Under the pieces are notes generated by a model that saw only the letters and a program-made list of their open reading frames with translations, had not been told where the DNA came from and did no database searches. The position numbers and the translations under genes are program-made. From the IMG/VR virus record IMGVR_UViG_2778261693_000003: 17,858 bases of DNA; one strand, given 5' to 3'. Position 1 is the first letter of the stretch. Each line of letters begins with the position of its first letter. The stretch comes from a virus (taxonomy: Duplodnaviria; Heunggongvirae; Uroviricota; Caudoviricetes). Below, in pieces: positions 10,064 through 12,787 of the stretch.

Positions 10064-10068
10064 CCGTT

Positions 10069-10440: not shown

Positions 10441-10731
10441 TTAGTGATTGAGGCCGTTACCGCGTCCGTCGAGAAAAACTTCCACGAGCAAATCACGGGT
10501 ATAAGTGCGCTCGATGCCGCGATGCAGATAAAGCCGTCCGCGTAAATTAGCTGATGCAGTCCAGGTACCATCTTTGTGTTTGACCAGCATGCCTGGCATG
10601 ACCGCACCGCGATTAACGGTCTGCGTTCCGTAATGTTGATGAACCATAAAAACTCCTGCCCGTAAGCTGGGCTGCTGAACATATAGAGACTTCTGCGCGT
10701 ATTCAGGCGGTGGATGGCCGCCGGTTGTCAT
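10441..10731 (-). CDS. Hypothetical protein at the lambda kil position (96 aa; alternative start at 10647 gives 68 aa)
   Basis: First ORF downstream of pL on the leftward strand, ending 76 nt before gam. ATG at 10731 has GAGG 10 nt upstream; ATG at 10647 has AGGAG 5 nt upstream. Sequence is unrelated to lambda Kil as I remember it. Confidence 0.5.
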
Positions 10732-10868
10732 AACTAAGCCGCCTCGTTGAAGCGACTGAGGTATAAAGTGTTGTGTTGATTTCAGCTGGTCACACCGACG
10801 TTCACGCGTCCGTTTCACCCCTCGCACTCCCCGAAGCCTGCTGAAATTCAAACTGCGGATCTAAGCGG

Positions 10869-10920
10869 TCATCGCAACGGTGAAACAGGTGGTTATCGTA
10901 TCGTTGTGTCGTTGCGATGA
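10869..10920 (-). promoter_or_regulatory. Perfect 11-bp inverted repeat (TCATCGCAACG / CGTTGCGATGA) with a 30-nt loop, in the pL leader
   Basis: Read directly from the sequence. Lies just downstream of the putative pL -10 on the leftward transcript; no U-tract follows, so it is not an intrinsic terminator. Confidence 0.5.
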
Positions 10921-10924
10921 ATTT

Positions 10925-10990
10925 ATTTAAAACTATAGTTGTTTTATCGTCAACAACAAAAGTTGTTTTATCGGTTGTTTTTAATATAAC
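10925..10990 (-). promoter_or_regulatory. Putative OL/pL: leftward promoter with an array of GTTGTT/AACAAC operator half-sites
   Basis: Minus strand reads TTGACG, 17 nt, TTAAAT, embedded in repeated AAAACAAC/GTTGTT motifs. A near-identical promoter-operator segment occurs at OR (12469-12504). Confidence 0.55.
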
Positions 10991-11090
10991 TGGTTGTATT
11001 TAGGATGGATTTATTTTGTGACTTGCATCGCATAGCGATAACTGAAGTGAGGTGTGGTGGTTTTTTGGACGGTATGAGTTATGAGGGGGA

Positions 11091-11119
11091 GGAAAAGAAA
11101 ACCCGGCGCGGTTGCCGGG
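11091..11119 (-). terminator. Rho-independent terminator downstream of the lipoprotein gene (minus strand)
   Basis: Minus strand: stem CCCGGC / loop AACCGC / stem GCCGGG followed by TTTTCTTTTCC, 9 nt after the stop codon. Confidence 0.7.
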
Positions 11120-11127
11120 TATGATTA

Positions 11128-11508
11128 TCAGTCAGCCCAACCTGATTTCGAGTTTATTTGGGTTTCTGACATTGTGTATTTCTTAATCGTGTCATCGTTA
11201 AAAAGAATAGTAAGTTCTTTTTTCGTACCGTTCGTTCCATTATGGAATAATCCATAGAATGGAATAAAAGTGGTGCCATTCACTTTTACTTTTGCAAAGG
11301 CGTACTTCCAGATCTCGTTTCCACTGTCAGTATATGAAACAGCATCAGGAGAACCAAAGTAAGATTTAACCTCATTCTTGGTTGTTTTACCTTCCTGAAG
11401 TTTAGACTGGACACTAATTTCAGTTTCATTTTTGAGTTGCTGGTTGTCTGAAGAAGCACACCCAGCCAATACAGATGCCATCATGGCAGCGATTAGGATT
11501 TTTCTCAT
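11128..11508 (-). CDS. Lipoprotein (lipobox LAGC), 126 aa, at the rexAB/sieB position of the immunity region
   Basis: Signal peptide MRKILIAAMMASVLAGC with a lipobox cysteine. AT-rich gene with a TATAAT hexamer about 15 nt upstream of the ATG and its own terminator. Mature part loosely resembles small BamE/SmpA-OmlA-like lipoproteins. Confidence 0.8.
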   Translation of the reverse strand: MRKILIAAMMASVLAGCASSDNQQLKNETEISVQSKLQEGKTTKNEVKSYFGSPDAVSYTDSGNEIWKYAFAKVKVNGTTFIPFYGLFHNGTNGTKKELTILFNDDTIKKYTMSETQINSKSGWAD

Positions 11509-11737
11509 TTTATGTTTCTATTCATTATAATCAGAAACATCTTAACATAATGATTCGAAATAAAAACCGCTACGAGATAGGGGGACATTTTGCTGACAGT
11601 AGCAACAAATCTCAGCTAACAACGAGAATATTTACTGAAATATGCAAACAGATTTGGCGTTCTTATAGAGAATTTAGTGCAATATCTAATCCGAGTGGTA
11701 TAAACCTTAACCTTCGCTCCCTTAAGTCGTAGATAAA

Positions 11738-12427
11738 TTAACCATGCTTCCTGTACGTCTGCGGCATGCTTCCAATGACCTTACCGAATATGAACACCCG
11801 GTTCATCTCGTCTTTCTCGATCGGGTCCCACGGCGAGTAGCTCTTGTTATCAGAGATAACCAGCAGCTTATCCTTCATCATTTGAAGACGTTTTACATGG
11901 GCAGTGTCGTCGTACAGAAACGCATAGATGCCATCACCGTCGAAAGATTTAACAGTGATATCAACGAACAGCAGGTCACCTGGTTCGATCGTCCCTGACA
12001 TGCTGTCACCTCGCACGTTAATGATGCGGATATTTTCCGCCTTCCTGCCATCGAACATGTGACGAGCATCGTCAAACGAGTACTCAACCGAGCGTAGAAC
12101 TTCTACAAACTCACGGTTGATTACACCTGGCCCGGCACTGACTTCTATATCAAGAACGTCAATTTTGAAGTATTTGGAATGGCTGACAGTTGATTGTATT
12201 GGTTGCACTGTACTGTCTGACATATTTCCAACGCCAGAAGATAACCATTCTGCGCGTACACCCAAAGCGTTCGCGATCTCCACGATTTTAGTTGTTTGGT
12301 TAGCTTTCCCTGTTTCGATTTTCTGAATAGCAGCCTGGCTAACCCCGACCAAATCCCCAAGCGCCTTTTGTGTAAGGCCTCGCGCTAATCTGGCTTCTTT
12401 AAGTCTTTCTGAGAGTGTTGTTTTCAT
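11738..12427 (-). CDS. cI: cI-type prophage repressor (N-terminal HTH, C-terminal S24 LexA-like peptidase), 229 aa
   Basis: HTH segment LTQKALGDLVGVSQAAIQKIETG, C-terminal autocleavage-domain motifs (VRGDSMSGTIEPGDLLFVD, catalytic Lys in HVKRL). Divergent from cro across an operator region. Confidence 0.88.
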   Translation of the reverse strand: MKTTLSERLKEARLARGLTQKALGDLVGVSQAAIQKIETGKANQTTKIVEIANALGVRAEWLSSGVGNMSDSTVQPIQSTVSHSKYFKIDVLDIEVSAGPGVINREFVEVLRSVEYSFDDARHMFDGRKAENIRIINVRGDSMSGTIEPGDLLFVDITVKSFDGDGIYAFLYDDTAHVKRLQMMKDKLLVISDNKSYSPWDPIEKDEMNRVFIFGKVIGSMPQTYRKHG

Positions 12428-12531
12428 AGATCAAATGTACAACCAAGGTTTTATTTCATCAAACGAAAATGGTTGTTGACTAAAAACAACCATAGTTTTA
12501 ATCTTGATTCGGATTAACCGCGGAGGTTGTT
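12428..12531. promoter_or_regulatory. Putative OR with divergent promoters PRM (leftward, cI) and PR (rightward, cro)
   Basis: 25-bp palindrome ATGGTTGTTGACTAAAAACAACCAT at 12469-12493 overlaps a TTGACT -35 hexamer for PR. On the minus strand, TTGATG, 17 nt, TACATT sits 6 nt from the cI ATG, which has no SD sequence. Confidence 0.55.
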
Positions 12532-12762
12532 ATGAACCCAGCAATCAAAACAGCGATCAATATCGTTGGTTCACAAAAGAAACTAGGCGATGCCTGCGAA
12601 GTTTCACAGCAGGCCGTCTATAAGTGGCTTCACAACAAAGCAAAGGTATCCCCTGAACATGTCGGCAGCATTGTTACGGCTACTGGTGGAGTTGTGAAGG
12701 CATACCAGATTCGCCCGGATCTTCCGAAGTTGTTTCCACACACCGAAAAGAACGCAGCTTAA
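12532..12762 (+). CDS. cro: Cro-like HTH regulator, 76 aa
   Basis: GGAGG 6 nt upstream of the ATG. Small HTH protein (GSQKKLGDACEVSQQAVYKWL) divergent from cI. Confidence 0.75.
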   Translation: MNPAIKTAINIVGSQKKLGDACEVSQQAVYKWLHNKAKVSPEHVGSIVTATGGVVKAYQIRPDLPKLFPHTEKNAA

Positions 12763-12774
12763 ATTTCCATTTCA

Positions 12775-12787
12775 CGCTCTTTAACAA
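12775..12787 (+). promoter_or_regulatory. boxA-like element CGCTCTTTAACAA
   Basis: Matches the antitermination boxA consensus (GCTCTTTAACAA) and sits at the nutR position just after cro. No convincing boxB hairpin follows. Confidence 0.4.

Follow-up and report, generated by a model that had tools for sequence, protein, structure and literature searches.

Predicted 14-bp, 434-like operators of a lambda-type immunity switch in a lambdoid prophage

The left portion of a lambdoid prophage is contained in a 17,858-nucleotide stretch of the Caudoviricetes record IMGVR_UViG_2778261693_000003, referred to here as the window. In it a cI-type repressor gene is flanked by two control regions, OR with the divergent promoters pR and pRM, and OL with pL. 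We conclude that this locus is probably the immunity switch of a lambda-like E. coli prophage, whose 14-bp operators, ACAAC-N4-GTT(G/T)T, would each be bound by a dimer of cI and later of Cro. An earlier reading of the same DNA, the original prediction, had described pL and pR as near-duplicate modules in which a palindrome of GTTGTT/AACAAC arms over the -35 hexamer is the recognition sequence of the repressor. It had identified both regions and the half-site correctly, and the divergent early promoter-operator regions that it placed around the cI-type gene are borne out by the gene content and by the sites, but it had drawn the operator boundaries in the wrong place.

The rightward segment, GGTTGTTGACTAAAAACAACCATAGTTTTAAT, is found on the plus strand at 12471-12502, exactly where it had been placed; the leftward one, TTGTTGTTGACGATAAAACAACTATAGTTTTAAAT, is present on the minus strand as described, at 10925-10959, one base to the left of the 10926-10960 first given. 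Their near-identity is real: in the best local alignment 28 of the 31 columns are identical, 2 are mismatched and 1 is a gap. This one-base gap, which had been missed, corresponds to the spacer between the arms, 7 nt long at pR and 8 nt at pL. The palindrome at pR is perfect, with 8-nt arms TGGTTGTT and AACAACCA. When the half-site search suggested at the outset was run, the pattern GTTGTT-N6-9-AACAAC occurred twice in the window, solely at pL and pR, against 0.01 expected from 200 shuffles. The GTTGTT hexamer alone is not enriched window-wide (16 copies against 11.7 expected, 8 of the 16 near the two control regions). The extra ACAAC copies nearby also exist, as ACAACC at 10973-10978 and 10992-10997 on the minus strand and at 12439-12444 on the plus strand.

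The pairing of these half-sites was compared in a family of 21 loci, the window and 20 phage-type loci. The loci were found by searching with the N-terminal domain of cI alone, because the closest full-length relatives of cI differ in this domain and in their control regions. They come from Escherichia, Klebsiella, Kosakonia, Enterobacter, Providencia, Morganella, Xenorhabdus, Serratia, Brenneria, Erwinia, Rosenbergiella, Arsenophonus and other Enterobacterales, and all 20 encode the recognition helix (V/L)(S/T)QA(A/S/N)IQK and a homologous Cro. The unit conserved across them is the 14-bp sequence ACAAC-N4-GTT(G/T)T, whose outer 5+5 bases are almost invariant and whose inner 4 are free. In a histogram of gaps built with no spacing assumed, all short-range convergent ACAAC to GTTGT pairs, 15 in OR and 17 in OL, had a gap of 4, whereas the divergent GTTGT to ACAAC pairs were for the most part 9 nt apart in OR and 10 nt apart in OL. 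In the window, 5 sites differ from the unit at no more than one position, where 0.6 would be expected, and 4 of the 5 are in OL or OR; a pair 22-25 bp apart occurred in 0 of 1000 simulated sequences. Among six near-identical phages, substitutions are found in the spacers and the leader, and none in OR1-3 or OL1-2.

Two units can be contrasted, the 14-bp site ACAACCTAGGTTGT and the junction sequence GTTGTTGACTAAAAACAAC of the original prediction. In the latter model, the repressor recognises one palindrome of 19-23 bp, (G)GTTGTT-N7/8-AACAAC(C), with the -35 hexamer at its centre, and the other ACAAC copies are auxiliary. Such a palindrome does exist at the two promoters and nowhere else in the window, and within each region its divergent spacing is fairly constant across the family. 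However, its spacer changes between pR and pL of one and the same phage, as does the prevailing gap between OR and OL in the family. One dimer acting in both regions needs one geometry, which leads to the 14-bp unit as the sole constant one. The half-site centres of the longer palindrome, 14-15 bp apart, would also lie on different faces of the helix, unlike those bound by a 434-like dimer. Finally, this model leaves unexplained the pattern of invariant arms around a variable centre, as well as the sites where ACAAC-N4-GTTGT stands alone: OR3, the sole conserved palindrome before the Pectobacterium rdgA-like genes, and two Methylobacterium loci with the same helix. We therefore regard the longer palindrome as an improbable recognition unit, and the binding unit is most likely the 14-bp, 434-like site. 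Because the convergent gap is fixed at 4, the units occur alone, their arms are invariant around a variable centre and the repressor is homologous to that of 434, the palindrome is best read as the joined halves of neighbouring operators: OR2 (or OL2) contributes its right half and OR1 (or OL1) its left half, and the 9-10 bp that separate the two operators contain the -35 TTGAC. The near-identity of pL and pR is explained by the same order of elements in both: operator right half, TTGAC, whole operator, -10.

The 434 repressor is the best match in the PDB to the DNA-binding domain of cI: residues 5-68 of cI align without gaps to residues 2-65 of the 434 protein (phmmer, E 4.5e-9; 1per and related entries). 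PhiR68_2, SPLA1b and Klebsiella phage 6, whose cI proteins are 72-82% identical to the one studied here, were considered as members of the same immunity group and rejected, as only the C-terminal domain is common while the N-terminal domain and the operators differ. For this reason they were used as a control for covariation. In this sister group, to which Providencia and Rouxiella loci also belong, the recognition helix is VAQPTIWR, and the positions of OR3, OR2 and OR1 are occupied by ATACG-CTTG-CGTAT, ACACG-TTTT-GCTAT and ATACG-CATT-GCTAT. The pattern becomes ATACG-N4-(C/G)(G/C)TAT, and the right half of OR2 becomes GCTAT with its position unchanged. This covariation of half-site and helix is the best evidence here that the repressor would read these sites. 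It agrees with the proposal that ACAAC/GTTGT marks the immunity specificity, and the repressor very likely reads this half-site.

A different assignment of proteins to the sites would make pL and pR duplicated promoter cassettes, with ACAAC bound mainly by Cro alone or by the YdaT-type cII protein, and cI acting elsewhere. The helix of Cro, VSQQAVYK, indeed shares the motif [ST]-Q-x-A-[IV]-x-K with cI in a family alignment made by eye, and Cro very likely binds the same sites as cI. But the half-site changes with the recognition helix of cI, and the rdgA-like and Methylobacterium loci keep the site before the repressor gene. The published YdaT site, TTGATT-N6-AATCAA (PMC9986795), is absent from the region; when up to 2 mismatches were allowed, the window held a single match, at 10068, which is the chance level. 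We consider this assignment very unlikely. Still less credible is a role of the inverted repeats at the nucleic-acid level, as hairpins that form, for instance, a terminator or attenuator of leftward read-through: a scan does flag ATGGTTGTTGACTAAAAACAACCAT, with a 9-pair stem and a T-rich tail on both strands, but G-C pairs make up just 3 of the 9, the predicted pR start lies downstream of the element, its loop changes length in relatives, and its arms are accounted for by operator halves that covary with the repressor helix.

The 14-bp unit defines three predicted operators in OR, lying over pR and pRM, and two matching ones at pL (Table 1), which is the operator arrangement of a lambdoid immunity region. 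In the window the OR sites start at 12439, 12463 and 12486, 24 and then 23 bp apart. The same start-to-start distances recur in the family, from OR3 to OR2 in 18 of the 21 loci and from OR2 to OR1 in 17 of the 21. The position of OR3 is occupied by ACAAC-N4-GTT(G/T)T in 21/21 loci, with almost invariant arms and a variable centre, and OR2 is ACGAA-N4-GTTGT in most of them. The predicted site centres are 12445.5, 12469.5 and 12492.5 in OR, and 10935.5 and 10959.5 in OL. OR2 abuts the predicted -35 of pRM and touches that of pR, so that its centre lies at about -42 from both predicted starts, while the centres of OR1 and OL1, at about -18.5, fall within the pR and pL spacers. In the family loci the central bases of OR1 and OL1 are A/T-rich (Y-A-T-R) and those of OR3 more G/C-rich; by analogy with 434, this composition would tune the affinity of the sites.

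The OL2 start lies 24 bp from that of OL1 in the window. A perfect ACAAC-N4-GTTGT with ACAAC-N4-GTTTT exactly 24 bp on is found in 15 of the 20 related loci, 0.8-3.2 kb downstream of cI, at a distance that varies with the cargo carried between them. Of the remaining loci, one has a distance of 23 bp between its OL sites, and in three the spacing is retained but one arm is degenerate. Beyond OL2, the evidence for a third site is weak. In addition to the half-site of the candidate OL3, the one at 10973-10978 lies near OL, and in relatives a conserved ACAACC precedes OL2 by 31 or by 42 bp, two distances that are one helical turn apart. The candidate is weakened by partial mutation of its half-site in PhiR47_2 and IdasGreatGrand.

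A candidate fourth operator in OR has at its centre the GGAG core of the cro Shine-Dalgarno sequence. In close relatives it reads ACCACGGAGGTTGT, with one mismatch and the left arm ACCAC, and the pattern AC(A/T/C)AC-GGAG-GTT(G/T)T matches with at most one mismatch in 15 of the 21 loci. The sister group carries ATAC(G/C/T) at the equivalent place, directly 5' of its own Shine-Dalgarno sequence, which is why this fourth site is probably real.

At the predicted promoters, relatives keep TTGAC at pR and at pL, and the -10 of phiEt88 homologous to that of pR is a perfect TATAAT; the -10 of pL is assigned tentatively, to within 1-2 nt. In the pRM region, CAAACGAA and GTTGTA..TT are conserved in relatives. 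The predicted pRM start falls at or beside the ATG of cI (12427), and the cI mRNA would then be leaderless. The annotation of cI in PhiR5_1 and PhiR34_1 adds 66 nt and begins within OR; the start codon was probably mis-annotated.

Table 1. Predicted operators, promoters and associated features of the immunity region (coordinates in the window).
Feature	Coordinates	Strand	Description
pL (predicted)	10924..10953	-	-35 TTGACG 10953-10948, 18-nt spacer, -10 TAAATA 10929-10924, start ~10917
OL1	10929..10942	-	ACAACTATAGTTTT; in pL spacer; ACAAC-N4-GTTTT in relatives
OL2	10953..10966	-	ACAACTTTTGTTGT; perfect arms, zero mismatches; touches pL -35
Candidate OL3	10984..10997	-	ACAACCAGTTATAT; good left half only; 31 bp from OL2
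Terminator-like hairpin with T tract	11091..11120	-	7 pairs, 6 G-C; tail TTTCTTTTCC; 3' of the lipoprotein gene
cI-type repressor gene	11738..12427	-	229 aa; PF01381 5e-13, PF00717 1e-18, phrog_4 9e-73
pRM (predicted)	12434..12462	-	-35 TTGATG 12462-12457, 17-nt spacer, -10 TACATT 12439-12434
OR3	12439..12452	+	ACAACCAAGGTTTT; one mismatch to ACAAC-N4-GTTGT; in predicted pRM spacer
OR2	12463..12476	+	ACGAAAATGGTTGT; weak left half, perfect right half
pR (predicted)	12476..12504	+	-35 TTGACT 12476-12481, 17-nt spacer, -10 TAATCT 12499-12504, start ~12511
OR1	12486..12499	+	ACAACCATAGTTTT; in pR spacer, -35 to -10
Candidate fourth operator	12517..12530	+	ACCGCGGAGGTTGT; two mismatches; ~+7 to +20 of pR
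cro, YdaS-type	12532..12762	+	76 aa; PF15943 7e-17; phrog_35 1e-27

This layout suggests how the switch would work. OL1 and OL2 are predicted to hold on pL the positions of OR1 and OR2 on pR, and repressor bound to OR1/OR2 and to OL1/OL2 would block RNA polymerase at both promoters. The lambda repressor activates pRM from a position of about -42. OR2 is placed between the two -35 hexamers, and repressor bound there could likewise activate pRM. At high repressor levels OR3 would be occupied and pRM turned off, and repression would be lifted when the S24 domain cleaves itself under stimulation by RecA.

Several points weigh against this interpretation. The family counts do not represent independent events, since many of the 20 loci share common descent. 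The divergent pairs, too, have a fairly constant spacing, and spacing alone therefore does not exclude the pairing of the original prediction. The left half of OR2 fits at just 3 of 5 positions. A consensus promoter scan did not call pR, pL or pRM, because the -10 hexamers are weak, with 3 of 6 consensus matches; the promoter calls therefore rest on the conservation of TTGAC and TA...T and on geometry. Lastly, the case is read from sequence. Directly observed are the sequences, the gene content, the homology to the 434 repressor, and the conservation and covariation of the sites across the family; from these we infer binding, transcription starts, activation, cooperativity and induction.

The gene content around the control regions is that of a lambdoid immunity region. 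The cI and cro genes are divergent, with a 104-bp gap between them, and a YdaT-type cII gene (PF06254, 4e-30), O and P lie downstream of cro; this corresponds to the divergent repressor and cro genes, control region of about 100 bp and cII-like and replication genes of lambdoid phages. Kil, Gam and RecT/Bet genes lie left of pL. The cI protein combines an N-terminal HTH_3 domain, with the recognition helix VSQAAIQK, and a C-terminal Peptidase_S24 autocleavage domain. Its translation contains a candidate Ala-Gly site (SAGPG), a serine in GDSM and a lysine in VKRL, and cleavage is predicted; by its sequence it has the helix-turn-helix and LexA/S24 architecture, with Ala-Gly site and Ser/Lys dyad, of a lambdoid repressor. 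Cro gives a weak match to the structure of Xfaso1 Cro (3bd1, E 0.0055). The region is 99.5% identical across 2.5 kb to the inducible Escherichia phage PhiR26_1. Of 5,426 complete E. coli genomes, 1,524 (28%) carry a 541-bp segment that covers OR, cro and the N-terminal part of cI. Some E. coli genomes carry up to four copies of the immunity module.

The prophage lies beside a tRNA-Arg(tct) gene and an integrase gene. The former (5604-5680) directly adjoins the latter (5696-6859, minus strand), at the left prophage junction, and was the sole match of an Rfam scan of the whole window. Between cI and OL, at the position equivalent to rexAB, a cargo slot (11091-11737) encodes a 126-aa lipoprotein with a weak BamE-like Pfam match (phrog_3135). 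The hairpin listed in Table 1 probably ends the cI operon ahead of OL. In phages with the same cI, the cargo slot holds HipA/HipD, GevT/GevA, or nothing.

The predicted pL leader, 10729-10920 on the minus strand, extends for about 190 nt ahead of the likely kil ATG at 10729. A perfect 11-bp stem (10869-10879 / 10910-10920) stands at its beginning. The fold of the leader is no more stable than that of shuffled sequence (z -0.94), and close relatives show no compensatory changes in the stem. A leader of the HK022 put type was considered and rejected, as the leader has no similarity to the HK022 put region. The Kil open reading frame annotated in PhiR26_1 (10441-10818) has 125 aa, of which the Kil family covers residues 49-125 only; a start at 10729, which gives the 96 aa annotated in PhiR5_1, is the more plausible one.

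Knowledge of the 14-bp operator and of its layout allows homo-immune prophages to be predicted, and the layout can guide the design of reporter or virulent-mutant constructs. We also suggest tentatively, at slightly less than an even chance, that the switch exceeds the layout of lambda and 434, with a fourth operator over the cro Shine-Dalgarno sequence, phased OL half-sites, and one family scaffold whose specificity can be read from the helix. If so, each region would have four sites, for a higher-order and possibly looped repressor complex. The scaffold would be a fixed 14-bp unit with 24/23-bp spacing, in which VSQAAIQK pairs with ACAAC and VAQPTIWR with ATACG, and the recognition helix would reveal the specificity in a family extending to the RdgA-type regulators of Pectobacterium.

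RdgA of Pectobacterium is an SOS-responsive repressor of pectin lyase and carotovoricin genes, and the homologue in phage phiEt88 is annotated as rdgA. Unlike the repressor described here, RdgA is a chromosomal regulator outside any cro/O/P context, with single sites instead of a tripartite OR. The protein encoded by the Pectobacterium loci found in our search has 244 aa and an identical recognition helix; its ATG is preceded, at a distance of 11 nt, by a perfect ACAACCTAGGTTGT, and ACAACTATAGTTTT occurs about 1.1 kb downstream. The two Methylobacterium loci carry their perfect ACAAC-N4-GTTGT directly upstream of the repressor start. Such sequences suggest that the chromosomal rdgA-like genes may be domesticated copies of the same repressor-operator pair.

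The comparison with known immunity groups, which the original prediction had proposed, identified 434-like operators that are nevertheless not of the 434, CP-933P/Rac or HK022 type. HK022 cI is 41% identical overall, mainly in the C-terminal domain, and its type was rejected because the N-terminal domain is different and the operators are of the TGAAC-N5-GTTCA type. The PaaR2/YdaS/YdaT module of CP-933P and the RacR/YdaS/YdaT module of Rac resemble the present one in pairing a YdaS-family Cro with a YdaT-family cII. The intergenic region of CP-933P has four repeats, plus a matching pL (PMC8630535), but its operators are 18-bp palindromes with the consensus GTTTAGTAA (PMC8630535), which is unrelated to the OR sequence, and this operator type was rejected as well. 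PaaR2 and RacR also lack the S24 domain that cI has here.

With lambda, the module shares the divergent cI and cro genes, back-to-back pRM and pR, operators spaced by 24 and then 23 bp, and the S24 autocleavage domain, as well as OR2 at about -42 from pRM, a cI mRNA predicted to be leaderless, and OL/pL placed beyond a cargo slot at the rexAB position. It differs in that lambda operators are 17 bp long and the N-terminal sequence of lambda cI is different; in addition, the present phage has a cII of the YdaT type, and no N gene can be recognised after its pL, nor does the annotation of the near-identical PhiR26_1 place an N-like gene there. The sequence CGCTCTTTAACAA at 12775-12787, 13 nt past the cro stop, fits the boxA consensus.

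The closest parallel is phage 434, whose repressor binds 14-bp ACAA-N6-TTGT sites, three per region, contacting the outer 5+5 bases and not the inner 4; a synthetic reference operator is ACAATNNNNATTGT (PMC1636474). Both systems have homologous DNA-binding domains (434 residues 1-69), 14-bp operators whose half-sites start with ACAA and three operators per region, and in both the repressor and Cro share recognition-helix residues (PMC1636474). The helix is nonetheless VSQAAIQK here and TTQQSIEQ in 434: Gln28 is kept, Gln29 is replaced by Ala and Gln33 by Lys, and the operators of this phage have a fixed C at position 5 and a fixed G at position 10. Moreover, Cro is of the YdaS/P22-Cro type and not a paralogue of 434 Cro, and a probable fourth site covers the cro Shine-Dalgarno sequence. 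The module is thus predicted to work like that of 434 but with a different immunity specificity, and the two do not belong to the same immunity group. Literature searches with operator strings and the names of related phages found no published description of these operators. The mechanism is the one expected from the lambda/434 design, and the immunity module is a very common, newly described case of this well-known type of switch.

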